NCBI GenBank assembly: GCA_028688015.1
Contig: JAQTZB010000012.1
Location: forward strand, 11,268-75,267
Direction of reading: 5' to 3'
Source: Elusimicrobiales bacterium
GTDB taxonomy: Bacteria; Elusimicrobiota; Elusimicrobia; Elusimicrobiales; UBA9959
Length of the DNA stretch: 64,000 nucleotides
Both the position numbers and the translations under genes were made by a program. The notes below the pieces were generated by a model. The model saw only the letters and a list, made by a program, of their open reading frames with translations, ran no database searches and had not been told where the DNA came from. This document shows, piece after piece, positions 6,001-17,059 of the stretch. Every line of letters begins with the position of its first letter. Position 1 is the stretch's first letter.

Positions 6001-8234
6001 GAGAAAACCGGGTGGCCCTCCGGACTGAGCGGGTCCGGGGATTCCGACAGCAGCACGCGGTAAACCGTATCCCCGGCATTGCCATTGGCCGTCCAGTTGA
6101 CGCGCAGGCCGTCGGCTGCGATGTCCGTGAAGGCCGAGAACTGCGGCATATTGGCCAGCGTGGCCGAGCCTATGGCCCCGGTATAAGCGGTGACCAGGCC
6201 GTCCTTGTTGAGGCCGGCCGCCCTGAAATAGTAGGTGGTGTCGGCGGCCAGGGCGGAGGCGTACAGCACAAGGTTATAGGTGTCGGACGAGTCCACGACT
6301 GCGCCGGCCGGAGCCAGCGGGTCGGGAGCTGTGGAGACCAGCACCCGGTAGCGGGTACCCCCGGGATTGCCATTGCCGCTCCAGGAGAAGATCATGGAGT
6401 CATTGGCCAGCCCTGACAGCGCGGGTGAGACAGGCGCGAATTGCACCCGGGTGGCCGCCGGGGTGAAGGCATACCAGGAGCCGGCCACATTGGCCGCGCC
6501 GGCGCGCACAAAGAAATAGTAGCTGGTATCGGGCGTCAGGGCCGGCGAGGCGAAAAGGGAGGCGCTCAGCCCGGCGGTCTCGCTGGAGGTGTAAATAGCC
6601 GTCGGGGGATCGTCCGGAGACAGCGAGGCCGCCAGCATGTAGCCGGTGGCCCCGGCGACCAGGCTCCAGGAGGCCGTGACCGAGGTGACGAAGATATCCG
6701 TCAGGGAGCCCGCGGCCGGAGAGCCCAGCGCGCCAAGGCTGAGCGTCCTTTCATTGACCGCGCCCGCATAGGCCGTAAGGACGCCGTTATGGTTCACCGC
6801 GGCGGCGCGGAAGTAATAGTAGGCGAAGGGCTCCAGGCCGGCCGAACTCAGGTAGAGAGAATAGGTGTCGTGATAGGTGACGGCGGCCCCCGACGGAGAC
6901 AAAGGGTTCGCCGCGGTAGAGACCGCCACCCGGTAAAGGGTGTCCTCCGGGTTGCCGGAGGCGTCCCAGTTCAGCTGTATGGCGTCCTCGGTAACGCCGG
7001 TAAAGTAGAAGCCGGCCGGCTGCAGGGCCAGCGTGGTGGTGGCGGCGGCGGCTGAATAGGCGGAATACTGGCCGGCCCGGTTCACGGCCGCGGCCCTGAA
7101 GTAGTAGGTGGTATCGGCCGCGAGCCCCGTAGTGGACAGCGAGAGCGAATAGGTGTCCGAAGAGGAATACAGGGCCGCTCCTGGCGCGGCCGGGTCCGGG
7201 GCGGTGGAGACCAGCACATTATAGAGCGTGCCGGGAGGATTGCCGTTCCCACCCCAGCTGAAGGTCAGCGCAGCGGCGCCGACCCCGGAGAGGCCGGCCG
7301 GGGCGGGGATCTTGGCCAGGGTAGCCGCGCCCTGCGGCAAGAAGTAGTAACTCACTGTCCCGCCGGCCGCGGCCAGGGCGGCCACGCGGAAATAGTAGGT
7401 GGTATTGGCCGCCAGCCCAGAGGTGCTCAGTGAAGTGTTATAAGTGTCGGAAGAACTCACCAGGGCGCCGGCCGGGGCCAGCGGGTCCGGCGCGGTGGAC
7501 ACCAGCACCCGGTAGCGCGAGCCCGGCGCGTTGCCGGAGCCGGTCCAGGAAAGGCCTATGGCGCTCTCCGTTACCCCGGAGAAAGAACCGAAGGAGGGCG
7601 CATAAAGGCGGGCCTGGGCCGTGGTGCCGTTGGAGAGATAACTCCAGCCGTTCCAGGCGGCCCGGGCTTTTATGGCGAAATAATAAGTGCCGCCGCCCAC
7701 AAGGCCGGAGAAGTTCAATTGCTCGGGCTGGCCCTGGGCGGCAGGTACCGGAACGGAGAGAAAATCTGTGGCGGAATGGGCCAGCAGGAACTGCGCCTCG
7801 CCCAGGGCCGGGGAACCCTCGGGATAGGTGGAGTAGCGTATCTCGTAGGCCTCGGCGGCGCCGGTATAGCCGTCGGCCGACGGCGCGGTCCAGGCCAGGC
7901 CGAGGCCGCCGTCGGAAACCCCGCCGGAGGCGGCCAGGTTCAGAATGGTCTCCGGCCAGGCGGCCAGGTTGCCGAAGCCGGCCTGCAGCGTATAGTTGCC
8001 GGAAGCGTAGGCCGCCGTCCCGGCTTCGCCCAGCACCGTCAGGCTGTTATAGCCGGCGGAAGCCGCCGAGGAACCGCCGGCGTCCACCGCGGCCGGGCGC
8101 AGGTCCTGGGTGGGCCCGGAGAAAGAGCCGCCCGCGGCGTAAGCGGGGAATAAAAGGACAAGGCAGAACCAGGCCGGCAATATGCCGGCAGGCAGGCCGC
8201 GGCGCGCGGCGCTAAACCCTGACCTCATGTTCAT
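1..8234 (-). CDS. Giant secreted cell-surface protein built from tandem fibronectin type III (FN3)-like modules. The N-terminus is in the window and the C-terminus runs off the left edge (partial, >=2744 codons).
   Basis: Hand translation from ATG at 8234-8232 gives MNMRSGFSAARRGLPAGILPAWFCLVLLFPAYAAGGSF..., a signal-peptide-like start. It continues with repeating ...LSWTGSGNAPGSRYRVLVSTAPDP...NTTYYFRVAA... units. All listed minus-strand ORFs in 1-8200 are in the other two frames, consistent with one open frame reaching position 1. The long + strand ORFs here are R/G-rich antisense shadows. Confidence 0.8.
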   Translation of the reverse strand, partial: MNMRSGFSAARRGLPAGILPAWFCLVLLFPAYAAGGSFSGPTQDLRPAAVDAGGSSAASAGYNSLTVLGEAGTAAYASGNYTLQAGFGNLAAWPETILNLAASGGVSDGGLGLAWTAPSADGYTGAAEAYEIRYSTYPEGSPALGEAQFLLAHSATDFLSVPVPAAQGQPEQLNFSGLVGGGTYYFAIKARAAWNGWSYLSNGTTAQARLYAPSFGSFSGVTESAIGLSWTGSGNAPGSRYRVLVSTAPDPLAPAGALVSSSDTYNTSLSTSGLAANTTYYFRVAALAAAGGTVSYYFLPQGAATLAKIPAPAGLSGVGAAALTFSWGGNGNPPGTLYNVLVSTAPDPAAPGAALYSSSDTYSLSLSTTGLAADTTYYFRAAAVNRAGQYSAYSAAAATTTLALQPAGFYFTGVTEDAIQLNWDASGNPEDTLYRVAVSTAANPLSPSGAAVTYHDTYSLYLSSAGLEPFAYYYFRAAAVNHNGVLTAYAGAVNERTLSLGALGSPAAGSLTDIFVTSVTASWSLVAGATGYMLAASLSPDDPPTAIYTSSETAGLSASLFASPALTPDTSYYFFVRAGAANVAGSWYAFTPAATRVQFAPVSPALSGLANDSMIFSWSGNGNPGGTRYRVLVSTAPDPLAPAGAVVDSSDTYNLVLYASALAADTTYYFRAAGLNKDGLVTAYTGAIGSATLANMPQFSAFTDIAADGLRVNWTANGNAGDTVYRVLLSESPDPLSPEGHPVFSADVAGLYHDFSGLDPDTRYFTRVAARGKGGLETDYTEPADAVTLAAAPVFSGFSEVGSASARLDWTANGNAPGTLYRVAVSTAPDPLAPDGAAVTVSDTYNLFLTTAGLTPDTFYYFRAAAVNSVGAVSEYIAIQSTATALAGAPALDGFTNVGAETMRFNWTSGGNPDGTLYRVAVSTAPDPNAPAGAAATVTDTYELFLTSAGLSVNTTYYFRVAGVSVAGSLTAYTAAAGTSTLLAFDPVFAGFSEVAEGGMKFNWAHNGNPSGTLYRVIAAAGGDPRDAPDAGVYDTYDLFLATAGLAANTVYYFRVAGVNNNGVLTSYSALQSTSTLANPPLPAGFSGLTPENLTFGWTANGNPAGSGYRVAVSTASNPLVPGGAAVTYSDVYELGASSAGLSANTTYYFRVAAVNHDGVVSAYSAPQGTSTLLSGAPVFSGFSGMGSGAITFGWTTGSLPGGLRYRVLVSTAPDPASPDGAAVTSSDTYNLSLSTSGLSGNTRYYFRAAGLNNNGAAWDYSAAASTSTLAAAPVFSGFSDVTYGSIRLNWTAGDNVYPDTVYLVAASTAADPLNPSGADVVTGETEESSLLLSGLPTQTTYYCRVAARNNDGVLTAYTAAQSTVTLFANATKLYFQDSVTPVDAVNSRYLTRAAGAAVVTYTKNTFAGPTTPPLITTQFSEAAGGSAVTWYSPPLDDVTIAGNVTFNLWARESNFRANATITAELLRADGAGAIQSVIASVVLSRGEVSSAVLQLQNWGKIPASTALSNGDRLAVRWHIDDANGATLANGYNVTATLGGATPGVSGDAWMQLAEPLAPARPAIGALSGVTAAAASASWSLVEGATGYTLAASVSSLNPPADIYVSSTVHNTTGATLDTPALAPDTLYHLFVRTNGPGASSSWEAYPATYTLLAYPPAAAAIAGVEADSVTFSWSANGNAYPGTLFRVLVSTAPDPAAPAGAMVSVHDTYSLSLSSAGLAPDTTYYFRAAGLGKGGALTAYTAPVGIATLLPYVPEPAAFTDLAADSLRFNWTSGGNPAGTHYRVLASTAADPAAPAGAVVTSSDTYNTWLSSAGLAANTTYYFRVAGLNKGGVPTAYSAASGMATNAASPAFSGFSGVIASEAGFNWTSGGNPAGTLYRVYASLAPDPLDPQGLFTTYSDTYDSPAVFTGLDADTTYYFRAAAIGYNGSASAYTAAVATATPLAYPPLAAGFAAVEAGALTFDWTAGGNADPGTRYRVLASTAADPGAPAGAAVTSSDTYNTYLSSSGLAANTTYYFSVAGVGKSGVLTAYTAAAGTSTLLGYAPATGGFSGVSTGSVVFSWTSGGNPAGTRYRVLASTAADPLSPAGAAVTSSDTYSSSLNLAGLAANTTHYFRVAGLNNNGVPTAYSAAAGTSTLAAQPAGLYITGEATHVLQLNWYADGNRDGTLYRVLVSTAPDPQAPGGAAVTSHYVYDLFLSTAGLESNKTHYFRAAAVNNNGIYTAYAAQSGVTLAIGQLGTPAEGAVTGVFVSSIAASWSLVGGATGYTLAASLAPDNPPTAIYASSVTVGNGAAAAAVFSPALVADTVYYLFVRANGDEVSGPWFQYPAAATLLAKAPVYLSFADVGYNSARFNWSANGNADPGTRYRVLVSTAYNPLVPAGAVVSSSDTYNTYLSSAGLDANTAYYFRVAGVNKDGVLTAYTISRSTTTPARAPAAAGFTGVGPYAATFNWSAEGNPFPRTRYSVAVSTAPDPLVPGGAAATLSETYDLFFSSSGLNPDATYYFRVAAVGNNGITTAYTTAAGTATLLAYPPVAAGFTYIGPSSATFNWSANGNAAGTLYQVYSSTAQDPLNPGGAVAVSSDTYNLYLSSAGLYANTTYYFTVAGRNRNGVSTAYTAAAGTATLANLPLTAVSTFSAVTNAGFTAAWEQNGNPVGTLYEVQVSSAQDFNPGVLYQVSAATAPEYGASYAFTDLVFSTTYYFRARAVNRNGLYTAYAGLGAVKTAGLQAPVAAPITQVSADSIT
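120..7700 (-). repeat. About 25 tandem coding repeats of roughly 290 nt (FN3 modules), with three variant modules and one non-repeat insert.
   Basis: The Y-Y-F-R/Y-F-R codon block (plus-strand gaaataataggtgg / gaagtagtaggtgg and variants) recurs near 135, 435, 725, 1015, 1305, 1605, 1885, 2180, 2478, 2768, 3058, 3350, 4205, 4497, 4790, 5075, 5365, 5650, 5945, 6230, 6520, 6815, 7100, 7395 and 7680. Confidence 0.75.
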
Positions 8235-8262: not shown

Positions 8263-9453
8263 TTATATGCCGCCCACCTTCTGCGCTATCACATAGCTGC
8301 CGGCCAGCACGGTAAGACTGCCGCTGGTACTGGGCGCCCACTGCAGGGTCACGCTGCCGATAGTGCTGGCCGTTATCCAACCCTGCAGGTAGACATTGTA
8401 GGGGATGGCGCTGCCGATGATAGACGTATTTGACATGGCGGTGGGAGCGGCATCGCAGTCGGTGGTATCGGCCTGCAGGAAGGCCGCACCTGCCGTCTCG
8501 GAGCCGGACTGCACCACCCGGCAGGTCCAGCCGGCCGCCCCGCGTATGGCCGCCTTCCAGTCAGGGGTGGAACTGTTGTTGTTGGAGACCAGCAGCCGGA
8601 ACTCGAAGATCCAGGTCTCCCCGGCCGCCACCGCGAAGGACAGTGCATCGTCGTCCTGCAGGGTAGTGCCGTTTGGCACGTTCTCATCGGCGTCCTTTAC
8701 CACGAACCGCATCGTCGTGGCCGGCGCCCAGGAAGCGTCGCCGCGCAGGAACTGCGTGGTGGAGCCGGAAGCCTTGGGGGTCAGCCCGTGACGCAATGTG
8801 GAAACATTGGCCGCCGTCACATCGGAAAGATCCAGCGCTCCCTCGTAAACAGCTCCCGCGGCCACCGATGAGACAATGACATTGGCCCCGAGGCTCCCGG
8901 CAGTGGCCAGCTTGCTTATAGCTATGGCCGCGGCGGGGGCAATATCGGCGTCGCTTATTATACCGTCCACTATTTGGTTACCGTTGTTTATCGCTCCCAC
9001 CGCCACGGAAGAGATCCTGAGCAGGACGGAGCCGTCATTGTCCGTCAGCGCGTCGGCGACCGAGGATTTGAAGCTGTAAGGCCCGGCGGTCAGCCGCTCG
9101 CGCGGGCTCAGGGTCTCGCCGGCCACGGCTATCTCAAGGTAGCGCGAGTCCGAGGCGAAGACGGCGCCGTCTATGGCCGCCGCCGCCCCAAGTTGCACGG
9201 CGAAGACGCCGTTAGTCACGGTGACGGTCTGGTTCTCCGTCCACAGGCAGGGATTGCCCACGGCGCAGGGCGCCGAGCAGGTGGCGGCCAGCGAGTTGCA
9301 GATCTTGAAGCTCATCAGGAAGTCGCCGTTCCTGGGCAGTTTACTGGAATCCAGCAGCCGGCCCTGGAAATTCACCAGGCCCGGCACGGCAGCGGAAGCG
9401 GAAAGCGCTCCGGCCAGCGACAGCCATAGGGCTAAAGTGGTAATTTTGCTCAT
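8263..9453 (-). CDS. Secreted hypothetical protein. The N-terminal module resembles those of tail-fibre-like or surface-fibre proteins.
   Basis: ORF 8263..9480. I prefer the internal start MSKITTLALWLSLAGALSASAA (signal peptide), which also avoids overlap with the upstream Rrf2 gene. The N-terminal VNFQGRLLDSSKLPRNGDFLMSFKI...YLEIAV...PYSF pattern is recalled from fibre-like proteins. No catalytic motif seen. Confidence 0.55.
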   Translation of the reverse strand: MSKITTLALWLSLAGALSASAAVPGLVNFQGRLLDSSKLPRNGDFLMSFKICNSLAATCSAPCAVGNPCLWTENQTVTVTNGVFAVQLGAAAAIDGAVFASDSRYLEIAVAGETLSPRERLTAGPYSFKSSVADALTDNDGSVLLRISSVAVGAINNGNQIVDGIISDADIAPAAAIAISKLATAGSLGANVIVSSVAAGAVYEGALDLSDVTAANVSTLRHGLTPKASGSTTQFLRGDASWAPATTMRFVVKDADENVPNGTTLQDDDALSFAVAAGETWIFEFRLLVSNNNSSTPDWKAAIRGAAGWTCRVVQSGSETAGAAFLQADTTDCDAAPTAMSNTSIIGSAIPYNVYLQGWITASTIGSVTLQWAPSTSGSLTVLAGSYVIAQKVGGI

Positions 9454-9463
9454 AATCTTTCTC

Positions 9464-9925
9464 CTATTCCTCGTCCGCACCGCCGCCGGCCGCGCCTGCC
9501 TGCGGAGCCTCGCCTTTGATCCTGCGCGTCTTCTCGTCTTTCTGCCGCTCTTCTTCCTTCATCATCTCCACGATATCCTGCACGGTGAGCCCCACCAGCC
9601 AGTGGTTGACCTCTTCGCGCAGTTTCTTGTAAAGCTTGCCGGGAACCTCCTCGCGCCCCCCCTCCGGGGCGTGGTTAAAAGTGAAAGCCTCCATGAGGCC
9701 CCAAACGCTGATATCGTCGAGGTCCCTGGCCAAGCGGTAGCCCTTGCCCTTCTGCGACTCCACGAAACCGGCGTGCACCAGCGCCTGCAGCACCTTGTTG
9801 CAGTACGGCGCTGGCAGGCCCTGGAAGCGGGCTATCTCCGCCACCTGGTTCCAGCGGCCTCCGTTGTTGGCCCCGAGGTAATGCAGGCAGGCGAGGCCGT
9901 AGGCTAACGTGCGGTTCATCCTCAT
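9464..9925 (-). CDS. Rrf2 family transcriptional regulator with an acidic/basic low-complexity tail.
   Basis: N-terminal winged-helix pattern typical of Rrf2/BadM: TLAYGLACLHYLGAN...QVAEIARFQGLPAPYCNKVLQALVHAGFVESQKGKGYRLA. There is no three-Cys cluster, so it is probably not an Fe-S type. Confidence 0.7.
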   Translation of the reverse strand: MRMNRTLAYGLACLHYLGANNGGRWNQVAEIARFQGLPAPYCNKVLQALVHAGFVESQKGKGYRLARDLDDISVWGLMEAFTFNHAPEGGREEVPGKLYKKLREEVNHWLVGLTVQDIVEMMKEEERQKDEKTRRIKGEAPQAGAAGGGADEE

Positions 9926-10007
9926 AAAAATCCCGAGTCGACTTACACAGCGCGCTGATCTTTCAGGTGACCAGCCGCCATTGGATACAACTTATCCGAT
10001 GACGGCA

Positions 10008-10041
10008 CAAAAAAATAGACGGCAGTATAAGACCCCGCTGT
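10008..10041 (-). terminator. Possible intrinsic terminator after the radical SAM gene.
   Basis: The minus strand reads gacagcgg-loop-ctgccgtc (imperfect stem, one mismatch and one G-U) followed by tattttttt. Confidence 0.35.
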
Positions 10042-10086
10042 CCATTGATATTAATAGTATAGCAGACCAATAACCGCAGTCAAGGC

Positions 10087-11127
10087 CTAAGCCTTTGATT
10101 TTGAATACACGGCGTGCTGAGCCCCGGCGAGGGCGCAGGCGGGAGCGTTCGGGGCCAGGACATTTCCCTCTTCCAGCAGGCTGATGCCGGGGCAGCGGCT
10201 GCACCAGGCGGCGTCCGCGCAGCCGGCGCAGCCGGCCAGGTCCGCCACAGTCAAGGACCGCCAGCGCTTCAGCCAGGGTGCGCTTTTCCAAAGCCCGGAG
10301 AAACTCCGGCGGGTTAAATTACCGAGCCTGACCGGCAGTTGCAGGCAAGGATACAGGTTGCCGGCCGGGTCCACGGCGCAGACATTTCGGCCGGCGCCGC
10401 AAATGAAATCTCCGGGGCCGGGCGGCAGGGGGGCCGCGGCCGGGGCCGGGCCGGCTATCAGTTTTACGGCCTTGCCTAGGGCGGCGCTGGACAGGCGCAG
10501 CGGCAGGGCGGCCCGGCCGCCGTCGTTGGCCGGGGCGATCACCGGGTCAAAAGAGAGACCGAAACCTTCTTTCTTCGCAAGCTCTTTCAACCAGCCTGCG
10601 TGCCCCGCGTTGGCGGTCATCAGCGGGACTTTCATCTTCACTTTTACCCCGGCGCCCGCCAGCAACCGGGCGGCGGCCAAACTGCGCGAGAAGGAGCCGC
10701 GCAGGCCGGTCACCCCGTCGTGGACGGAGGGCCCGCCGTAAAAACTTATTTCGAAGCCGGAAACTCCCGCGGCGGAGAGCTCGCGCGCCAGCCCGCGGGT
10801 GAGGCCCAGGCCCGTGGAAAAGATCCTCACGTCGAAATTGAGCGCCCTGGCCCGGCGGCACAGGTCGGCCAGGTCGGGCCTCAGCAGCGGCTCGCCGCCG
10901 GTGAAGACCAGGTACAACCCGCCGGCGCGGGCCAATTTATCAAGTATTTTCCCCCACCCGGCGGCGGACAGCTCCCTGCCGGGCCGGGCGCGGCCGAGCG
11001 TCTCGGGCAGGTAGCAATGGCGGCAGGACAGCGGGCAGCGGCGGGTCAGTTCTATGGTGACGGAAACCGGGATGTTCTTTTCGACGGTAACGGCGTTAAG
11101 CCGCGCGGAGGGCGTGCAGTCAGGCAT
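10087..11127 (-). CDS. Radical SAM / SPASM-domain peptide-modifying enzyme.
   Basis: CPLSCRHC (CX3CX2C) near the N-terminus and FTGGEPLL SAM-binding motif. The C-terminal auxiliary-cluster Cys motifs CGAGRNVCAVDPAGNLYPC and CAGCADAAWCSRC are SPASM-like. Confidence 0.85.
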   Translation of the reverse strand: MPDCTPSARLNAVTVEKNIPVSVTIELTRRCPLSCRHCYLPETLGRARPGRELSAAGWGKILDKLARAGGLYLVFTGGEPLLRPDLADLCRRARALNFDVRIFSTGLGLTRGLARELSAAGVSGFEISFYGGPSVHDGVTGLRGSFSRSLAAARLLAGAGVKVKMKVPLMTANAGHAGWLKELAKKEGFGLSFDPVIAPANDGGRAALPLRLSSAALGKAVKLIAGPAPAAAPLPPGPGDFICGAGRNVCAVDPAGNLYPCLQLPVRLGNLTRRSFSGLWKSAPWLKRWRSLTVADLAGCAGCADAAWCSRCPGISLLEEGNVLAPNAPACALAGAQHAVYSKSKA

Positions 11128-11437
11128 TGAGGAAAGAGGCGAACCGGCGGCGCAGGGTAGAATAGACCCGCCCGGGCAGGCCGCGGGAGAGGGGCCCTCC
11201 CAGCGCGCGGCCCCTGATATCTGCCCAAGGCACCAAATGCGGTTCCAGCCGGCCTGCGTCGTCGGCCAGCCAGGCCCCGTCGGCCGAGGTTTTTATTACG
11301 CGGTGCAGCAGGGTGCGGCCCCGGTAAGAGTAGACCGCGCAATCTCCGGGCCGGAGCTTGCCGGGGCGCGCCAGCGCAAGTTCCCCGGGCTTGAAGACCG
11401 GGAGCATGCTGGAGCCCTCCAACCTGAAAGCCTTCAT
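11120..11437 (-). CDS. Small soluble S24/S26-type (LexA / signal peptidase I-like) serine peptidase.
   Basis: GSSMLP Ser motif at residues 8-13 and a candidate general-base Lys in LLHRVIK. 105 aa with no hydrophobic anchor. It starts 2 nt after the small peptide ORF stop and overlaps the rSAM start by 8 nt. Confidence 0.6.
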   Translation of the reverse strand: MKAFRLEGSSMLPVFKPGELALARPGKLRPGDCAVYSYRGRTLLHRVIKTSADGAWLADDAGRLEPHLVPWADIRGRALGGPLSRGLPGRVYSTLRRRFASFLNA

Positions 11438-11439
11438 GC

Positions 11440-11583
11440 TCAGGAAAACTTCTTAAGGGTCTTGCAGGCCAGCTGGCTGATGGGGCCCGTAATGCATTTG
11501 CCGCAGGCCAGCGCGGCGGTCTCAAAGACCTTCTCCGTCTTCATCTTCGGTTTCTCGTAGGTTTTTTTCTTTTTTTCGGTCAT
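11440..11583 (-). CDS. Unlisted 47-aa ORF; candidate RiPP precursor peptide.
   Basis: Hand translation: MTEKKKKTYEKPKMKTEKVFETAALACGKCITGPISQLACKTLKKFS*. Its ATG overlaps the PqqD TGA (ATGA). GAGG lies 7 nt upstream. It has a Lys-rich leader-like half and a three-Cys C-terminal half. It is below the ORF-track length cutoff. Confidence 0.55.
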   Translation of the reverse strand: MTEKKKKTYEKPKMKTEKVFETAALACGKCITGPISQLACKTLKKFS

Positions 11584-11846
11584 TTTGTCGCCTCGATAAG
11601 CCCCGCGGCCATTAATTCCTTAACAAAGCCGTTCAGGTCCGCCCTGGCGGTCTTTTCGTTGACTTCGTATTCGGCTGTCAGCGCCGAAAGCAGGCCCCGC
11701 TCTCCGTCCCCGCGGACCAGGCCCTCCCAGATGACGGAGGCCGGGCCGTTGAGTTCCCGCATTTCGGAGCGGGCCGCGTCCACTATGTAGACCTCGCCGG
11801 CTATGCGCCGGAAAGCGAGGCCTTTCTTGATCTTGTATGGCATCAA
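11580..11846 (-). CDS. PqqD family protein (RiPP recognition element-like peptide chaperone).
   Basis: 88 aa. The ...YIVDAARSEMRELNGPASVIWEGL...LLSALTAEYEVNEKTARADLNGFVKELMAAGLI pattern is typical of PqqD. 4-nt overlap with the upstream kinase-like gene. Confidence 0.8.
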   Translation of the reverse strand: MMPYKIKKGLAFRRIAGEVYIVDAARSEMRELNGPASVIWEGLVRGDGERGLLSALTAEYEVNEKTARADLNGFVKELMAAGLIEATK

Positions 11847-12661
11847 ATGAGCTCCAGGAAACCGCAGTCCGCTTTGGAAAACTCCAGGCGCCTGAATTCG
11901 GCTCGCGCCAACAACGCCGCCCCGTTCCCCAGCGCCAGCGCCGCAGCCGCCGGCGACCTTTCGAAATTTACCGCGCAGCGCAGCAGCAACCGCAGGGCTT
12001 CACCCCGGCCGCACGACGCCGTCGCGTTACAGCGCGCCTTGGCCAGCAGAAAGATACCGCCCAGCGGCCAGGAACCGGGGCGCCCGTCCGCGCGCATCTC
12101 CCCCCAGAAAGGGGAGCCGTGCACCCGGTAGCCGCCCTTGCCGGGCAGGACCAGATTTATCTCGTCGCTGATCACTTCGCAGCCGGCGGCCGCGCCCAGC
12201 CGGGAAATGGTGGACTTGCCAGCCCCGGACTTACCCAAGAACAAGCAGGCCCGCCCGTTCTTCAGCAGCCCGGCGGAATGCAGCATAAAACCACCTGACC
12301 GCAGGAGTTGGAAACTTATGAAAGAGCGCAGAAAGGCGTCCAGGGTTTGCTCGCTCGGGGCCGCCACCAGCTCCCCGCGGCCGGTGCGAATGTCCAGGCC
12401 GGCCTGAAAGTCCCCCCGCTCCAGCGTGAGGGCCCGCCCCTCCAGTTTAACAGCCGGCCTGAACGGGTTTTGCAGGCGCGGCCCCCTGACGACGTTAAAA
12501 CTGCAGCCGGTTTTCCCCTTTGCCGCGAAACGGGCGTACCTGCCGCTCAAAATATTAATGATACCCGGCGCATCCGATTTAAAGTACAGGTTTAAACCGG
12601 CAATGGCAAGCCCGTAGGCAGCGGCGCGGCCGGGCGCCTTCAAGGCAGCCATGCCGGCCAT
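11843..12661 (-). CDS. HPr kinase-related P-loop protein (HprK-related kinase family).
   Basis: FMLHSAGLLKNGRACLFLGKSGAGKST matches the HprK C-terminal domain P-loop context. Its start overlaps the stop of the upstream pilin-operon gene. Confidence 0.7.
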   Translation of the reverse strand: MAGMAALKAPGRAAAYGLAIAGLNLYFKSDAPGIINILSGRYARFAAKGKTGCSFNVVRGPRLQNPFRPAVKLEGRALTLERGDFQAGLDIRTGRGELVAAPSEQTLDAFLRSFISFQLLRSGGFMLHSAGLLKNGRACLFLGKSGAGKSTISRLGAAAGCEVISDEINLVLPGKGGYRVHGSPFWGEMRADGRPGSWPLGGIFLLAKARCNATASCGRGEALRLLLRCAVNFERSPAAAALALGNGAALLARAEFRRLEFSKADCGFLELI

Positions 12662-13926
12662 GTCTGCCTGCTATCCAGCCAGGACTGCCGCGTAAGGCGG
12701 ACGTCCGTGGTTAGTATCTGCTTGGCCGCCTCGTCCGTGTAGAAGAAGCAGATATTATTAGAACCGAGCGTTACCGTGCCCACCACGTAGGCCGCTCCCA
12801 CGAATATGCTCTGGCCGGCGCCGCCGCCGGTGGTGATGTTGCCGCCCACGTAGATAAAGCCGTTAGTGATGGCCTTGCCGCTGGTGACGGTCATGGTAAT
12901 GTTCTCGTCCGACCGGTAGCTGTCGTTGATGCCCGGGAAATCATCCGGCAGGCTGGGCGTGGTATCGTTCCAACTCTCCCCGCAGGCCGGCCCGCCGTCC
13001 TTATAATAATCCCAGTCGTTGCCGTACTGCTTCCAGGCGGTGCGCGGCATTTTAATAGTGGGCGACCCCTGGCCGGAGCGGCCGTTGGGAAGGTTCAGGT
13101 TGCCGGTGATGATCAGGTTGCCTCCCACATAAATGCCGTTGGACTTTACGGTGAGGTCCCCTTCTATGAAATAGGTTTTGCCGGTGTTGCATTTGACGGC
13201 GTTGTCGCACTTGGAGCCGGGGCCGCTGCCCCATGTCTGCGAACTGCCGTAATAAGTGCCGTCGAGCGTGGCCGAACTCCTGTAAGCGTCGATATCTATG
13301 CTGGAGGCCTGCGGGATGCCGGGATAATAACTCCACCACTGCACCGAATCCGTATTGGGCGGGGAGGCGCTGGTATCCTTGCCTATGATGGACGAAGCGC
13401 TGTAGAACTGCGGGTGGTTGCGATTGTTGGAATCTATGGAGCCGGGCGCCAGCACGCTGCCCCATTCCACCTGCTCGTTGGAGCCCGAGAGGCTGACGCC
13501 CTGCAGCGACCGGATGGCGTTCTGGCTGATGGCGGCATTAGCGTAAACCACCTTGAGGGCCCTGGCCTCCCGGGACTGCTTGTCCCGCCCGACGGCCAGG
13601 ATGGTAGCCTGTTCCAGGTCCGGGCCGCTGGAGATGGAGATGGTATACGTGCCGCCTGGCAGGTCGCTGTAGACGGCGTCGAAATTAAAACCGGCGAGGG
13701 GCAGGCCGTCTTTAACGGCTTTCCAGGTAGAGGTGGACTCCACCAGCTTCTGGTAGGCCCGGTCCACGGCGCCCTCCGCCAGCTGGAAGGCATTGGAATT
13801 CTGCGCCTGCTTTTCGCTCCATTTCACCTCGTTCTGGATGTACTTCACCATAGCCGGCACCACTATAGCCAGCACCACCAGCATGGCGATAACGCCCAGC
13901 AGCAGCTGCCCTTTCCTGTTCTTCAT
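12640..13926 (-). CDS. PilX-like / pilus-associated protein with an N-terminal membrane anchor and a beta-helix-like C-terminal region.
   Basis: MKNRKGQLLLGVIAMLVVLAIVVPAM... N-terminus resembles the PilX N-terminal domain and has no Glu5. Gly/Asn-rich repeats follow: GGNLIITGNLNLPNG, GGNITTGGGAGQ. Its start shares 1 nt with the upstream pilin's stop codon. Confidence 0.5.
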   Translation of the reverse strand: MKNRKGQLLLGVIAMLVVLAIVVPAMVKYIQNEVKWSEKQAQNSNAFQLAEGAVDRAYQKLVESTSTWKAVKDGLPLAGFNFDAVYSDLPGGTYTISISSGPDLEQATILAVGRDKQSREARALKVVYANAAISQNAIRSLQGVSLSGSNEQVEWGSVLAPGSIDSNNRNHPQFYSASSIIGKDTSASPPNTDSVQWWSYYPGIPQASSIDIDAYRSSATLDGTYYGSSQTWGSGPGSKCDNAVKCNTGKTYFIEGDLTVKSNGIYVGGNLIITGNLNLPNGRSGQGSPTIKMPRTAWKQYGNDWDYYKDGGPACGESWNDTTPSLPDDFPGINDSYRSDENITMTVTSGKAITNGFIYVGGNITTGGGAGQSIFVGAAYVVGTVTLGSNNICFFYTDEAAKQILTTDVRLTRQSWLDSRQTWPAWLP

Positions 13927-14432
13927 CAGTTCATTATCCTCACTTTTTGGATGGAAAGCTGCAGGGCCTTCTTGCCGCCGCGGTAAGTGGGCGACTGCAT
14001 GGTCATGGCTATCGAAATAATGCTGGTGTCGTCGGTCCTGGGGTAGGTGAAGGCGATGTAGGCCAGATTGGAGGACAGCACCCTGACATTTCCGTTATTG
14101 TTCATGTACAAGTCCTTGCCGTTTTGGTAAAAGTACATGACCACGTCTTCGCCGGACGCGTTGACATAGTTGAATTTCAGCCGCGACAGCGGCGGCTGGC
14201 CAGGGGCGTTGTCGATCACGACCGTGGCGGCCTGGGCCTGCCGGGTGAAGCGGTTCATCATGTCCAGCGAGGTGCGGACGTCGCGCTGGATAGCGTAGCG
14301 CGCCGAAGTGAGCCGCCAGAAGTTGGTGATCTGCATCATCATCGGGGCGGCCACCGTTGTCAGGATGCCGAGGATGGCCACCGTGATCATCAGCTCGACG
14401 AGCGTATAGCCACGTTTTTTAGGGCCTACCAT
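13926..14432 (-). CDS. Prepilin-type N-terminal cleavage/methylation domain protein (minor pilin / pseudopilin).
   Basis: MVGPKKRG|YTLVELMITVAILGILTTVAAP shows the class III signal: Gly at -1, Glu at +5, then a hydrophobic helix. Confidence 0.8.
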   Translation of the reverse strand: MVGPKKRGYTLVELMITVAILGILTTVAAPMMMQITNFWRLTSARYAIQRDVRTSLDMMNRFTRQAQAATVVIDNAPGQPPLSRLKFNYVNASGEDVVMYFYQNGKDLYMNNNGNVRVLSSNLAYIAFTYPRTDDTSIISIAMTMQSPTYRGGKKALQLSIQKVRIMN

Positions 14433-16924
14433 GCGAAGTCCCTCGTGGCGGTACCGCCCGCGTTGACATAAACTCCGGTGCTGGTCCTGGAGGTATAGGT
14501 CACCGCGCCGCTGTTGGCGTTGACCACCGGGTAATAGGCCCTCATGTTATAGGGCGTAGTGGTGCTGGACCTGACCTCCAGGCTATATGTACCGTCGGCC
14601 TGGCTGGAAGCGGAATAATAAATGATTTCAGAAGCGGAAGTGGCGGCGGCTATGGACGGCAAAGGGTCGCTGACGGTGCCCGTGCTGGCCACCACCAGCA
14701 CGCCGGTGGTGACGGCAACGCTGCTGGCCACCACGGTGCCGGTAATGGTGCCCAGGGCCCCCACAATGGTTATGGTGCCGGTAAAAACGGTGCTGCCCGG
14801 CACGGCCATGTCGGCCTCCAGGGGCGTGGTCGGCAGGGAAGTATAGCTTTGCAGCGGGTCGAGGACTGGGTTTATGGTATACGCCACCGCGGAGGTAGCC
14901 GCGTAAATATAGAAGTGGCCGGTGCTGTCGCTGGTATCCTCGTAAACCGGCCCGCCGTTGGTGGCCTGCACCACCACGTTAGGAAGGACCCCGGTGCCAG
15001 AGGTGACGTAGCCGGTTAGATACCCACCCTGGGCGATATGGAAATCCGGGACCTGGGTAATACCGCCAAGCGGTATGTCCACTTCCGCGTCTACGCTCTG
15101 GTAGCTGCCGTTGGCAGAGCCATAATTAGCCGTGATGGTCACCAGGCCGGTGCTGAGGAACAGCATGTAAAAACCCTGGCTGTCGGTGTTGGCGGTCACT
15201 CCGCCGGCGCCGACCTTGATGGAAGGATTGCCCAGGGGCCGATACTGGTCCGGGCCGCTGCCGAAAACGTAGCCGGTGGCTATGCCTCCCGGCACGGTGG
15301 TGGAAAGGACCAGGGTGCCGACGTCCTTGTTCTGCCCGGCGGCGATATACAGGCCGGCGCTGGAGTTGAAAACCGTGTAAGAGGCCACAGTCACGGTCCA
15401 GGTGCTGACGGTATTCAGCGCGGCGCAGGTCGCCACGTTGGTGAGGTAGAAGTACCCGGTTGCCGAGACCAGCGCCGACGAGGAAAGCCCGTCGTTAACG
15501 GTGACTATGCCCCCGGCCGCGGGGGTCCCGGTGACGGCGGTCTCCTGGGTGGCGGAGTTTCTGGGCGGGTAGATGACCGAGGACAACACGTAGAAATCCG
15601 TATTATTGTTATTGGCGTCGTAGGCCCGGCCCGAGCCGGAGGCCAGCATGGAGGCGTGGGACTTGCGGATGAACTGCTCGCTGAGCTGCAGGCCCGTGAA
15701 CTGGTCTATGGGTTCCCCTTCGCCGCCGAAAGAGTTGCCGCCGGTTTTCCAGGCCACCTTGTCCAGGGCCTGCGAGAGCGCCAGGTCCACCAGCGACACC
15801 TCGGCGGCGTCGTTGCCGGGATCGGTGTTGATCTTGATGATGTTCGGGAAATTCGGGTTGCTGTTGCTGAAGACCGCGTCGGCGGCGCGCGTGGTGCCGC
15901 CGGCCTCTATGGAGGCCGCGTTGGCGAAAAGATAATAGCGCTGCGGGCCCAGGGTCAGGGTAGCGTAGTCGTTGGTAATGAGCAGGGCGGGCTGGGTGTT
16001 GATCTTATAGCCCAGGCCCACGAGCCCCGAGTTCAGGCCGGTGGCCATGGTCCAGGTCCAGGTAGTGGGATTATAGACCTCTATCCATTCCTGGGAAAAG
16101 CCGGCGACGGTCACGGAGGCGCCCACCACCTGGGAGATGACGAGGTGGTCGCGGATGTAAGCCAGGCCGGAGACGCTGCCGGTGGCTATCTTCATCAGGG
16201 AAAAGTTATAAGTGGTATACGCCCCGGCCGTTACGGAGAGGGTGGGGCTCATGGTGGAATAATAAACGTCGCTGGAGCAGACCAGGGTGTACGTGCCCGG
16301 GGCCACCTGAAAACTGTAATTACCCGAGGCGTCGCTTGTAGCGCGCCACTTGGGCGCCCCCATCACCTGCACCAACGCATCGCCCACTGGCACCGCCGAA
16401 GCGCCGGGTGTGTAGGAGATCTGCCCCCTGAAGCCGGCGTTGAGCATCTCGGTGTTGGGGTTCTCGTAATAGCTGCTGAACTGCACCTTTTTGGGTTCCC
16501 CGCCCTCCGACCACATCACCGTTACCGTTATCCGCTTCATGCCGGGGTCCTCGTCCGTGGGCAGCAGGGGCGTAGGCACCGAACCGTTGAGCGTGATGTA
16601 TTCTACTTTCACCACCCGGGTAAGCGCCGGCATGCCCCAAAGCGTTATGGTCTGCGGGGGATAGGTGGTGGAGTCGTAAGTGAAATTGGGTGAGAAGCCG
16701 CTGCTTGGCAAAGTTTCCGTGGTGACCTGCAACTGATAATAAGACTTGTTCTTGAGCACCTCCATCTTTTCCTGGGCCAGATTGATGGCAATGGTCTTGA
16801 TGCGGGACTGCGTCATAGCCCTGTTGATGAACTTAAAGGCGCCCATACCCCCCACCACACCGACGGTCAGGATCGTGACGGCAATCATCAGTTCTGTAAG
16901 GCTGACGCCTTTTCGTTTTGACAT
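14426..16924 (-). CDS. 832-aa pilin-like fusion: prepilin N-terminus, PilV/GspI-like region, CarboxypepD_reg-like beta-sandwiches and a lamin-tail-like domain.
   Basis: MSKRKG|VSLTELMIAVTILTVG has Gly at -1 and Glu at +5. SGNYSFQVAPGTYTLVCS-type modules are present. The QEWIEVYNPT signature resembles lamin tail domains. The ORF track extends to 17044, so alternative upstream starts are possible. Confidence 0.7.
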   Translation of the reverse strand: MSKRKGVSLTELMIAVTILTVGVVGGMGAFKFINRAMTQSRIKTIAINLAQEKMEVLKNKSYYQLQVTTETLPSSGFSPNFTYDSTTYPPQTITLWGMPALTRVVKVEYITLNGSVPTPLLPTDEDPGMKRITVTVMWSEGGEPKKVQFSSYYENPNTEMLNAGFRGQISYTPGASAVPVGDALVQVMGAPKWRATSDASGNYSFQVAPGTYTLVCSSDVYYSTMSPTLSVTAGAYTTYNFSLMKIATGSVSGLAYIRDHLVISQVVGASVTVAGFSQEWIEVYNPTTWTWTMATGLNSGLVGLGYKINTQPALLITNDYATLTLGPQRYYLFANAASIEAGGTTRAADAVFSNSNPNFPNIIKINTDPGNDAAEVSLVDLALSQALDKVAWKTGGNSFGGEGEPIDQFTGLQLSEQFIRKSHASMLASGSGRAYDANNNNTDFYVLSSVIYPPRNSATQETAVTGTPAAGGIVTVNDGLSSSALVSATGYFYLTNVATCAALNTVSTWTVTVASYTVFNSSAGLYIAAGQNKDVGTLVLSTTVPGGIATGYVFGSGPDQYRPLGNPSIKVGAGGVTANTDSQGFYMLFLSTGLVTITANYGSANGSYQSVDAEVDIPLGGITQVPDFHIAQGGYLTGYVTSGTGVLPNVVVQATNGGPVYEDTSDSTGHFYIYAATSAVAYTINPVLDPLQSYTSLPTTPLEADMAVPGSTVFTGTITIVGALGTITGTVVASSVAVTTGVLVVASTGTVSDPLPSIAAATSASEIIYYSASSQADGTYSLEVRSSTTTPYNMRAYYPVVNANSGAVTYTSRTSTGVYVNAGGTATRDFAW

Positions 16925-17059
16925 GCAGAAGCCAAAAACCGCGGCGCCGCGCGCTGCGGCGCGATCGTTCTTAGTGTTCATTCTTGCGGCGCCCATGCCA
17001 TAGCCTACCAGGCGGCGCGCCAAAAAACCGCAATTCCCCCTCAAATACTCCGCAAATCC

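Follow-up and report, generated by a model that had tools for sequence, protein, structure and literature searches.

A conserved five-gene cassette of Elusimicrobia as a predicted maturation system for a 47-residue peptide, with homologous cassettes in many other phyla

In this work we analyzed a cassette of five genes in a 64,000-nucleotide (nt) stretch of DNA from an Elusimicrobiales bacterium (GenBank assembly GCA_028688015.1, contig JAQTZB010000012.1, positions 11,268 to 75,267); the whole stretch is referred to here as the window, and the cassette occupies window positions 10087-12661 on the minus strand. The five genes encode an ScmC-like P-loop protein, a PqqD-family protein, a 47-residue peptide with three cysteines, a small soluble peptidase and a radical S-adenosylmethionine (SAM) enzyme with a SPASM domain, and very probably they form a cassette for the maturation of the 47-residue product. 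The peptide and its four neighbours travel together as a unit across phyla, and the cassette of the window is the Elusimicrobia variant of a widespread, so far unnamed six-gene system, whose sixth gene encodes an NTP_transf_5 protein. An earlier annotation of this stretch, the original prediction, had described a compact RiPP-like cassette; the system is larger than was described there, given that it is found in many phyla and that in Elusimicrobia it lies within a longer conserved string of genes.

From the list of open reading frames (ORFs) of the window and from reading the sequence, the five ORFs are all co-directional and abut or overlap one another, each at the position that had been given for it in the original prediction:

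11843..12661, minus strand: ScmC-like P-loop protein with HprK motifs and a PEPCK/HprK-type fold (PEPCK, phosphoenolpyruvate carboxykinase), 272 amino acids (aa), predicted ATP-dependent peptide kinase; alternative starts ATG 12652 and TTG 12643
11580..11846, minus strand: PqqD-family protein, 88 aa, predicted leader-binding chaperone of the RiPP recognition element (RRE) type (RiPP, ribosomally synthesised and post-translationally modified peptide); likely start ATG 11843
11440..11583, minus strand: precursor peptide, 47 aa, with predicted leader MTEKKKKTYEKPKMKTEKVFETAALA (residues 1-26) and predicted 21-aa core CGKCITGPISQLACKTLKKFS (residues 27-47)
11120..11437, minus strand: soluble S26-type (Ser/His) peptidase, 105 aa, predicted leader peptidase cutting after Ala-Leu-Ala
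10087..11127, minus strand: radical SAM/SPASM enzyme without a fused RRE, 346 aa, predicted peptide crosslinking maturase

The PqqD and peptide genes overlap by 4 nt (ATGA), a gap of 2 nt separates the peptide gene from the peptidase gene, and the latter overlaps the radical SAM gene by 8 nt, as had been described. The first junction, also read earlier as an ATGA overlap, is not strictly of this kind: between the kinase-like and PqqD genes the sequence is TTGATG, giving a 4-nt TTGA overlap if PqqD starts at the TTG and an overlap of 1 nt if it starts at ATG 11843, the start favoured by the homologues. At its other end the kinase-like gene runs into an upstream gene of 428 aa (stop 12640), with an overlap of 22 nt from ATG 12661, or of the four letters TTGA if the in-frame TTG 12643 is the start. 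The anatomy and the overlaps point to a putative single, translationally coupled unit. Because the kinase-like gene overlaps the 428-aa gene, the cassette is probably co-transcribed with the upstream pilin-like genes, as the distal part of a longer transcript; a consensus scan upstream of the cassette found no sigma-70-like site scoring above 9/12. A GAGG Shine-Dalgarno sequence precedes the peptide gene, which occurs as a single copy, with no second copy in the window. Rfam and tRNA scans of the window gave no matches.

The gene neighbourhoods of homologues were surveyed, as the original prediction had advised, in 47 Elusimicrobia loci from species-representative genomes, and the five genes co-occur where the contig suffices. 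The set stays intact despite sporadic insertions of unrelated genes and a reordering in one locus (L052), and because it survives these changes we regard the five genes as a functional unit. The inserted genes were considered as extra pathway enzymes and rejected, as they are sporadic and unrelated (spermidine-synthase-like membrane proteins, a GIY-YIG-like protein and a 392-aa P-loop ATPase-like protein, the last identified by reading its sequence only). The peptide is the best-conserved gene of the locus in Elusimicrobia, with a median identity to the window of 82%, as against 63% for the radical SAM enzyme, 61% for the peptidase, 58% for the kinase-like protein and 53% for PqqD; among the flanking genes the values are 80% for an Rrf2 regulator and 33-46% for the pilin-like proteins.

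The 47-aa ORF is a real coding gene under strong purifying selection. Over 941 pairs the frequencies of synonymous (pS) and nonsynonymous (pN) differences were 0.63 and 0.14, respectively, a ratio of 0.22, and the invariant residues of the peptide use up to four different codons. In Elusimicrobia the consensus of the peptide is MKKKKxYxKPx[IML]K[ST]EK[VI]FETAALAC[GA]KCxxGP[IT]xQx[AS]C[KR][ST][LI][KR][KR]xS; its three Cys and the C-terminal Ser are invariant in the peptides of 44 loci, and the Ser is also present in 61 of 61 peptides from other phyla (105/105 in total). The two clades have in common a basic N-terminus and a basic patch, and a leader motif that runs Y-x-[KP]-P, then [ST]-[EQ]-x-[IVL]-[FY]-E-[TK]-x-[AV]-[LF]-[AT], and then directly Cys-[GAM]-Lys. 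The three residues that precede the first Cys (-3 to -1) are ALA in all the Elusimicrobia peptides, and ALA in 59, AFA in 1 and VLT in 1 of the 61 others. A second conserved Cys precedes the C-terminus by exactly seven residues in almost every peptide of the two clades, and this Cys and the first one are the only core Cys kept in all clades. The predicted core has 21 residues and three Cys in Elusimicrobia and 18 residues and two Cys in nearly all the others; an example from another phylum, found with a hidden Markov model (HMM) of the peptide, reads ...KKPYTKPSVKSEPIYETLALA/CGKLPGQGGVCNAAPRRS. Peptides of different clades resemble each other more in the leader than in the core, and within a clade the core is nearly fixed. 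A short encoded precursor with a conserved leader and core thus stands beside modifying enzymes, which is an element of the definition of a RiPP.

A word-indexed search of 5.8 billion proteins returned 101 relatives of the peptide, and every one with a named source is an Elusimicrobia 'hypothetical protein'; no family matched in an NCBIfam scan of four peptides at E<=1. Two other assignments of the peptide were discarded. The sequence AALAC is not the lipobox of a lipoprotein signal peptide, given the high charge of the leader and its lack of a hydrophobic segment. The peptide is not an ACGX-repeat peptide either: it carries a single ACGK only, and the rSAM_ACGX model gives 63 bits against a cut-off of 400.

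Close homologues of the kinase-like protein number about 200, and every one with a named source comes from an Elusimicrobia metagenome-assembled genome (MAG). A profile of this protein run against 1.84 billion cluster representatives (clusters at 50% identity) gave 17,304 matches at E<=1e-3 and 271 at E<=1e-30, among them full-length relatives at about 30% identity that are homologous throughout to the Elusimicrobia family (hhalign E 2.8e-66). Eighty loci of other phyla were collected with such distant kinase-like proteins as seeds; their hosts are mostly Acidobacteriota, together with Rokubacteria/Methylomirabilota, Armatimonadota, Deltaproteobacteria, Verrucomicrobia, Dormibacterota, Fibrobacterota, Chitinivibrionales and a Methanobacteriaceae archaeon. 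Using HMMs built from the Elusimicrobia proteins, ScmC-like, PqqD, radical SAM and S24/S26-like genes were found together in 60 of the 80 loci, and a further 11 lack the peptidase only, within the range fetched. The peptide HMM recognised a homologous peptide in 59/80, and cassettes with such a peptide occur in Acidobacteriota, Rokubacteria, Verrucomicrobia, Dormibacterota, Deltaproteobacteria and the Methanobacteriaceae archaeon. The search was also run in the opposite direction: a scan of GTDB species representatives for the peptide motif yielded 203 peptide-encoding stretches, and 69 of 75 new loci seeded with the peptide carry ScmC-like, PqqD and radical SAM genes within 5 kb, 58 of these 69 with the peptidase as well. 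Homologous enzyme sets do carry a conserved small ORF, contrary to the outcome that the original prediction had named as speaking against it (sets without such an ORF, beside a large substrate protein), and since the five-gene set is conserved both in Elusimicrobia loci and in other phyla, chance is excluded. In 52 of the 80 loci an NTP_transf_5 gene (PF14907; 8e-56 in locus L064) adjoins the cassette as sixth gene. No such gene is present in the window, and among the Elusimicrobia loci only the two most divergent have one, directly upstream of the ScmC-like gene (L043, 788-1666; L046, 804-1679); their ScmC-like proteins are 33-35% identical and L043 has a GC content of about 40%. The main Elusimicrobia lineage, including the window, appears to have lost NTP_transf_5.

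Some genomes of Acidobacteriota and Binatus hold two or more copies of the precursor gene, in one locus or far apart. Examples are L087 and L088, the contigs CAVVKO010000003.1, CAVQQE010000006.1 and CAVQQE010000011.1 (one MAG), and a Binatus MAG with the contigs DATNLR010000040.1 and DATNLR010000067.1.

Two of the five proteins belong to families that are well established in peptide maturation. The PqqD protein matches PF05402 with 47.5 bits against a threshold of 23.4 (E 2.3e-12), in agreement with the leader-binding element proposed for it and with the RRE expected of a RiPP pathway of this kind; it also has weak matches to the NCBIfam models of lasso PqqD chaperones, and it is present in every homologous Elusimicrobia locus that reaches far enough. 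The 346-aa protein is over the Pfam thresholds for Radical_SAM (1.8e-20) and SPASM (4.5e-7). Its CX3CX2C motif (C31/C35/C38) is invariant in 35 orthologues, and the seven Cys of a SPASM domain can be followed as C243, G256-x4-C261, C300-x2-C303-x5-C309-x2-C312 and C331, of which C331 is present in 34/35 and the rest are invariant, so that the Cys set for two auxiliary clusters is full and the radical SAM motif and SPASM clusters that had been read from the window are borne out by its relatives. The enzyme has no N-terminal RRE. PqqD/PqqE and MftB/MftC likewise consist of a discrete PqqD protein and a SPASM radical SAM enzyme that has no RRE itself, and because the cassette matches this arrangement we argue that PqqD would deliver the leader to the radical SAM enzyme.

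The closest solved relatives of the radical SAM enzyme in a PDB search are SkfB (7.9e-17) and PqqE (1.6e-13), and the best curated families for the window protein are PqqE, MftC and NirJ, all far under their NCBIfam cut-offs. Orthologues in other phyla are recovered with E-values down to 1e-99 with the Elusimicrobia HMM (up to 3.5e-72 in one comparison). The original prediction had allowed for a grouping of this enzyme with the anaerobic sulfatase maturases. No model of these maturases is found among the 25 best NCBIfam matches of the window enzyme and two orthologues, nor among the PDB matches, and the nearest relatives are PqqE, MftC, NirJ/AhbD and SkfB. The GeoRSP model, like that of the ACGX type, scores far under its cut-off.

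The 272-aa protein had been predicted to be an HprK-like kinase, and with regard to its motifs and its fold this holds. The segments LHSAG, GxSGAGKST, SDE and GSPFWGEMR are invariant in 24 orthologues, and we take them to be the His, the P-loop and the acidic pair of HprK/P-type enzymes. An AlphaFold2 model with a mean predicted local distance difference test (pLDDT) score of 89.5 matched ATP-dependent PEPCK (1.4e-7) and then HprK/P (1.2e-3) in Foldseek, with template modelling (TM) scores of 0.4-0.5; by sequence, the profile found generic P-loop matches and weak PEPCK matches only in the PDB. On the basis of this model the protein is placed in the PEPCK/HprK kinase fold group. As to its family, it is closest to ScmC and not to the HprK-related A/B models: its best NCBIfam match is ScmC (TIGR04249; 1e-10, 41.5 bits against a cut-off of 125) and its precomputed Pfam family is PF27840 'ScmC', whereas HprK_rel_A matches at 2.4e-7 and the HprK-related kinases A and B (TIGR04352, TIGR04355) give 30.2 and 23.6 bits against a cut-off of 200. 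The local Pfam library gave no match. The distant relatives score 25-42 bits with the ScmC model, and none is at the ScmC or the HprK-related cut-offs.

A precedent for the role of this protein is found in the lasso peptides paeninodin and pseudomycoidin. Their HprK-type kinases, PadeK and PsmK, act on the linear precursor, whose C-terminal Ser they (poly)phosphorylate; they lose their activity when the acidic pair is mutated, and PsmN, a nucleotidyltransferase homologue, adds hexoses to the phosphate (PMC6993621, PMC9266682). Given that the invariant C-terminal Ser, the HprK-type protein and the nucleotidyltransferase homologue of the cassettes mirror this tailoring pair, we propose that the ScmC-like protein may phosphorylate the C-terminal Ser of the peptide, a proposal by analogy for which we see the chances as evenly balanced. 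Phosphorylation had been mentioned as a possibility in the original prediction, and it gains from the presence of the Ser in 105/105 peptides and from the pairing with NTP_transf_5 in 52/80 loci. It is rather unlikely that the ScmC-like protein is instead an ATP-dependent scaffold or chaperone of the radical SAM enzyme and PqqD, or that it activates some other residue; in that event the invariant Ser could serve radical SAM chemistry at the C-terminus (cf. MftC) or recognition by the peptidase. Such a role would be in keeping with a fold search that ranks PEPCK (E 1e-7) well over HprK/P (E 1e-3) at low TM, with HprK-related kinase models that give 24-30 bits against cut-offs of 200, with the MftC model as a top match of the radical SAM enzyme, and with the ScmC protein of the SynChlorMet cassette, an uncharacterised 'conserved hypothetical' by the name of its model. 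It would leave aside that all the HprK catalytic motifs are invariant and that the pairing of NTP_transf_5 with a C-terminal Ser resembles a tailoring pair shown by experiment in the lasso peptides, an analogy that argues for the kinase.

In several loci the kinase-like gene is found in other company. In Armatimonadota and one unclassified MAG (L057, L059, L068, L075 and L129) S24-like, ScmC-like and PqqD genes occur without a radical SAM gene or a recognisable peptide, and the S24-like gene of L059 carries a GNAT fusion (checked with Pfam in L059 only). Locus L073 has NTP_transf_5, ScmC-like and S24 genes followed by glycosyltransferase-, carbamoyltransferase- and flippase-like genes (judged from their sequences), and L130 has NTP_transf_5, ScmC-like and S24 genes. 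Because some loci thus have no radical SAM gene (Armatimonadota) or no PqqD gene (L073, L130), the kinase-like/S24 pair can work in other contexts, and it seems to be a module that is reused outside radical SAM pathways.

The fourth gene had been annotated as a soluble S24/S26 peptidase. The clan SF fold, the catalytic motifs and the absence of a membrane anchor stand, and the protein resembles the Ser/His enzymes of the S26B kind (Sec11/SipW) and not the LexA-like S24 peptidases. In 33 orthologues the motifs LEGsSMxPxF, GDC, LLHR(V), DDAG and PH are shared, with Ser10, His45 and both Asp invariant and Val47 in at least 90%, and a family profile aligns Ser10 and His45 to those motifs of human SEC11A/SEC11C that hold the catalytic Ser and His (E 0.003-0.01). 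The AlphaFold2 model (pLDDT 90.8) retrieved LexA, UmuD', the C-domain of lambda cI, SpsB, E. coli SPase I and SipA in Foldseek, with TM scores of 0.5-0.57, E-values of 0.004-0.06 and probabilities of up to 1.0. Of the features by which clan SF is recognised, the LexA/signal-peptidase beta-fold and a catalytic Ser in SM-x-P with a His base are present, and the window protein is under the cut-offs of Peptidase_S24 (PF00717; 17.0 against 23.3 bits) and of archaeal-type signal peptidase I (TIGR02228; 21.9 against 51.85 bits); orthologues in other phyla are over the first (9e-8, 32.2 bits) and reach 51.2 bits with the second. From sequence motifs and the model, the 105-aa protein is best described as a minimal, anchor-less and presumably cytoplasmic S26-type peptidase of the Ser/His kind. 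The start codon that gives 105 aa is taken as correct because the residues upstream of Met11 are conserved at the protein level. Public gene calls often start at Met11, including that of the window (P0222, 95 aa), and so lose the LEGSSM motif with the catalytic Ser.

Type I signal peptidases require small residues at -3 and -1. The Ala-x-Ala that precedes the first Cys of the peptide fits this specificity and would therefore be a natural cut site for an S26-type enzyme, and as the charged leader has no hydrophobic core the cut would amount to leader removal in the cytoplasm and not to secretion. That the leader is indeed cut here by the S26-type peptidase we regard as about equally apt to prove right or wrong; the dedicated leader cleavage of the original prediction is in any case compatible with the junction. 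In comparison with the endoplasmic reticulum/archaeal type of signal peptidase I (S26B: Sec11, SipW; TIGR02228), the SM-x-P and HR(V) motifs align and the junction is likewise Ala-x-Ala, but the enzyme of the cassette has 105 aa and no membrane anchor, and its presumed substrate has a highly charged leader with no hydrophobic signal region.

From these components a pathway of four steps guided by the RRE can be proposed. PqqD would bind the leader through Y-x-K-P-x4-[ST]-E-x-[IV]-[FY]-E-T and hand the peptide on to the enzymes. Lacking an RRE itself, the radical SAM/SPASM enzyme would install an intramolecular crosslink in the core, most likely as one or more Cys-derived thioethers. With the precursor still linear, the ScmC-like protein would transfer phosphate from ATP to the side chain of the invariant Ser at the C-terminus, and in most other phyla the adjacent NTP_transf_5 enzyme, absent from the window, might then decorate this phosphate. 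Finally, the small soluble Ser/His peptidase of the S26 type would remove the leader after Ala-x-Ala, and a basic core of 21 residues that starts with Cys would be set free. Counting the crosslink only as an intramolecular link installed by the radical SAM enzyme, we find the full scheme reasonably probable. It is the nature of the link of which we are least sure: with substrates rich in Cys a thioether is the default expectation, no residue can be singled out as its acceptor, and our confidence that the link is a thioether falls somewhat short of even.

Several observations weigh against the scheme. Every enzymatic step is inferred from homology and context, and no component of the cassette is at the curated cut-off of any NCBIfam family. 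The peptidase of the window is under the Pfam threshold and the E-values of its profile and fold matches are weak (0.003 to 0.06). The radical SAM orthologues of other phyla match AhbD and NirJ2 of the heme pathway best, and not thioether synthases, which makes the type of crosslink uncertain; also, the role of the first core Cys might be that of a free thiol or a metal ligand and not that of a crosslink donor. Lastly, 21 of the 80 kinase-seeded loci have no recognisable peptide, and some have no radical SAM gene (Armatimonadota) or no PqqD gene (L073, L130). A motif search of these 21 loci gave one implausible candidate only (L132), and reading of the intergenic and downstream sequences of 13 of them (an Acidiferrales subgroup, Deltaproteobacteria, Armatimonadota, L073 and L130) gave nothing convincing.

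The loci without a peptide, the heme-pathway matches and the large secreted proteins that are frequent neighbours of the cassette would be expected if the small ORF were not the substrate at all, with the radical SAM enzyme acting on a tetrapyrrole or on a large neighbour and the S24-like protein being a fragment of a self-cleaving regulator. We consider this very improbable, because the peptide co-occurs with the enzymes in both directions of the search, a PqqD/RRE partner is present, the peptide is under strong purifying selection and has a leader and core with an Ala-x-Ala junction, the S24-like protein, with 105 aa, has no DNA-binding domain, and the heme-pathway models are far under their cut-offs (153 bits against 500). 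The maturation of the 47-residue peptide by its neighbours therefore remains the reading we adopt.

Among curated systems the closest is SynChlorMet (TIGR04249-04251), which shares with the cassette an ScmC-type P-loop protein beside PqqD and a PqqE-like radical SAM/SPASM enzyme. The window proteins lie well below its models (ScmC 41.5 bits against 125, ScmE 81.9 against 400, ScmF 54.6 against 400), so that they do not qualify as members. In addition, SynChlorMet has two radical SAM enzymes (ScmE, ScmF) and the window one, and the cassette has an identifiable precursor and an S26-type peptidase, with NTP_transf_5 in most phyla. We know of no precursor identified for SynChlorMet, and no paper on that cassette was found in the literature searched.

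For the tailoring steps, the closest functional analogue is given by the phosphorylated lasso peptides, with which the cassette shares HprK-type and PqqD/RRE proteins and a precursor that has Ser as its last residue. In most phyla an 'uncharacterised nucleotidyltransferase' is adjacent as well (cf. PsmN), which is lacking in the window. The usual lasso partners, the Asn-synthetase-like cyclase (C) and the transglutaminase-like B/B2 protease, had been noted as absent, and neither is encoded by the five genes; they are also absent from the precomputed Pfam lists within 8 kb on either side of three homologous loci. In their place the cassette has a radical SAM/SPASM enzyme and a Ser/His peptidase of the S26 type; it has no ABC exporter, and its kinase-like protein, in spite of the HprK motifs and fold, is under the equivalog cut-off (200 bits) of the HprK-related kinases A/B.

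With the sacti- and ranthipeptides (enzymes of the SkfB, AlbA, PapB and CteB type) the cassette has in common the full SPASM Cys set and a precursor that contains Cys and begins with a leader, SkfB being the best solved match. In contrast to these systems its RRE is a separate PqqD and not an N-terminal domain of the radical SAM enzyme, the unit includes a kinase-like protein and an S26 peptidase, the core is strongly conserved instead of variable, and the thioether-synthase models are far from reached (SkfB 61 against 300, AlbA 44 against 850, StsB 58 against 625, PapB 44 against 340 bits). The architecture is distinct from that of the lasso and the sacti- or ranthipeptide loci, as had been proposed; the cyclase and the protease that define the lasso class are missing.

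The pathways of pyrroloquinoline quinone (PQQ; PqqA/D/E/F) and mycofactocin (MftA/B/C/E) share with the cassette a short conserved precursor, a discrete chaperone of the PqqD type, a SPASM radical SAM enzyme, a dedicated peptidase and the absence of an exporter. PqqE and MftC are the top NCBIfam models for the window enzyme, yet under their cut-offs (108 against 381 and 105.7 against 265 bits, respectively), and the cassette differs in that the peptide has no Glu/Tyr or Val-Tyr motif, the peptidase is of another family, a kinase-like protein is present and no associated redox enzymes are seen. No description of the cassette was found in the literature searched, whose coverage of subscription papers was incomplete, so that an earlier description is possible.

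The surroundings of the cassette differ between clades. In the window the following features flank it:

12640..17044, minus strand: three upstream co-directional genes, found in Elusimicrobia only, which overlap each other and the kinase-like gene and keep the same order in about 40 loci
14426-17044, minus strand: 872-aa protein with a prepilin-type N_methyl motif (PF07963), among these three
13926-14432, minus strand: 168-aa protein with a prepilin-type N_methyl motif (PF07963), among these three
10083-10056, minus strand: -35/-10-like pair TTGACT-16-TATACT, TG-extended, with a conserved -10-like box, upstream of the hairpin
10009..10043, minus strand: hairpin (about 10043-10017) and T7 run (10015-10009) at the end of the cassette, predicted terminator or attenuator
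9979-10001, minus strand: 23-bp palindrome CATCGGATAAGTTGTATCCAATG, of the form CATYGGAYA-N5-TRTCCRATG, conserved in 28 aligned Elusimicrobia loci, preceding the Rrf2 gene
9464-9925, minus strand: gene for an Rrf2-family regulator (PF02082, 6e-19), found in Elusimicrobia only, 69-96% identical across 34 loci
8263-9480, minus strand: 405-aa fibre-like protein, downstream of the Rrf2 gene
1-8231, minus strand: giant fn3-repeat ORF of more than 2,740 aa, after the 405-aa gene, running off the start of the window

In nearly all the Elusimicrobia loci with enough contig the order is pilin-like (872 aa), pilin-like (168 aa), 428-aa, ScmC-like, PqqD, peptide, S26-like, radical SAM and Rrf2. One of the three upstream pilin- or pseudopilin-like genes has a CarboxypepD_reg match, and neither the pilin-like nor the Rrf2 genes were found in the 80 loci of other phyla. 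The spacer between the radical SAM gene and rrf2 has 161 nt (9926-10086, minus strand). A terminator near 10.0 kb had been predicted here; in the window its hairpin is weak when taken alone (z -1.4) and a consensus scan made no call, but in 24 of 24 distinct homologous spacers, folded singly, a hairpin of 7-10 bp ends at the T-run with stems that differ in sequence, and for this reason we take it as a real conserved feature. RNAalifold gave no structure for this region, in which the loops do not align. The palindrome is probably the operator of the Rrf2 protein. A promoter followed by a hairpin and then by an operator hints that rrf2 may be subject to attenuation or autoregulation. Directly after rrf2, homologous loci of other Elusimicrobia encode a protein of about 9,400 aa, at the place where these downstream genes lie in the window. 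The Arg-rich 'ORFs' on the plus strand at 1-8215 are shadows of the giant fn3-repeat gene.

In loci of the Acidobacteria type the peptide gene is followed by a gene for a secreted protein of about 750 aa with CBM96 and beta-propeller domains (38/80 and 53/75 loci; for instance L064, 8174-10420), and the same pair of genes occurs in three orphan copies without the enzymes (L157, L158 and L161, around 5000-7440). This suggests a functional link between the peptide and the protein of about 750 aa, and the fact that large secreted proteins adjoin the cassette in two unrelated clades is suggestive.

No exporter, transporter or immunity gene is found in the unit. Because of this, and because the core scarcely varies within a clade, a conserved role in the cell or at its surface is more likely for the product than that of a variable antibiotic. 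A more specific form of this idea is that, in the manner of PQQ and mycofactocin, the peptide gives rise to a housekeeping molecule retained by the cell and not to a secreted natural product; candidates are a peptide-derived cofactor and a prosthetic or anchoring group of large secreted or surface proteins. The core hardly changes while the enzymes diverge to 35-60% identity, the system is found in bacteria and in an archaeon, transport and immunity genes are missing from the unit, and PqqE and MftC are among the top matches of the radical SAM enzyme; besides, the peptide gene of Acidobacteria precedes the secreted CBM96/beta-propeller protein even in the three orphan copies, and the Elusimicrobia cassette lies between pilin-like genes and a giant fn3-repeat surface protein. 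Against this, no redox or cofactor-using enzyme is conserved alongside the cassette from phylum to phylum. The large neighbours vary with the clade, and many loci do not have them. The core also varies far more from clade to clade than the leader does, as is usual for RiPP natural products. Such a housekeeping precursor is possible but doubtful. With equal caution it may be imagined that the final product is an ancient, hitherto unrecognised peptide-derived molecule, short, crosslinked and carrying a phosphate on its C-terminal Ser that in most phyla is further nucleotidylated or glycosylated, with a conserved function in bacteria and archaea that is not antibiotic; it could, for instance, be a cofactor, or serve large secreted surface proteins and pilus-like fibres as a handle, an anchor or a maturation factor.

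A pathway in which an RRE and a radical SAM enzyme act on a RiPP precursor is of a known kind; what appears new here is the combination of enzymes in it, and it stands out by its wide distribution and the atypical conservation of its product. If the inferred steps hold, the cassette would define a new RiPP family that joins SPASM radical SAM chemistry, Ser phosphorylation of the HprK/ScmC type and a soluble leader protease resembling signal peptidases, three maturation activities whose combination was not reported in the literature searched. The system is widespread, yet its components are without a curated family and the peptide is annotated only as 'hypothetical'. For the uncharacterised ScmC family the cassette offers a substrate and a hypothesis for the reaction, and it may explain the SynChlorMet cassette; it also suggests that the kinase and nucleotidyltransferase pair of the lasso peptides is a portable module across unrelated RiPP classes. 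With a peptide conserved above its enzymes and no exporter, it provides a testable case for a cellular function over antibiosis, and if the product were such an ancient conserved molecule, it would represent a third 'primary-metabolism' RiPP family built on the PqqD/SPASM radical SAM pair, beside PQQ and mycofactocin.

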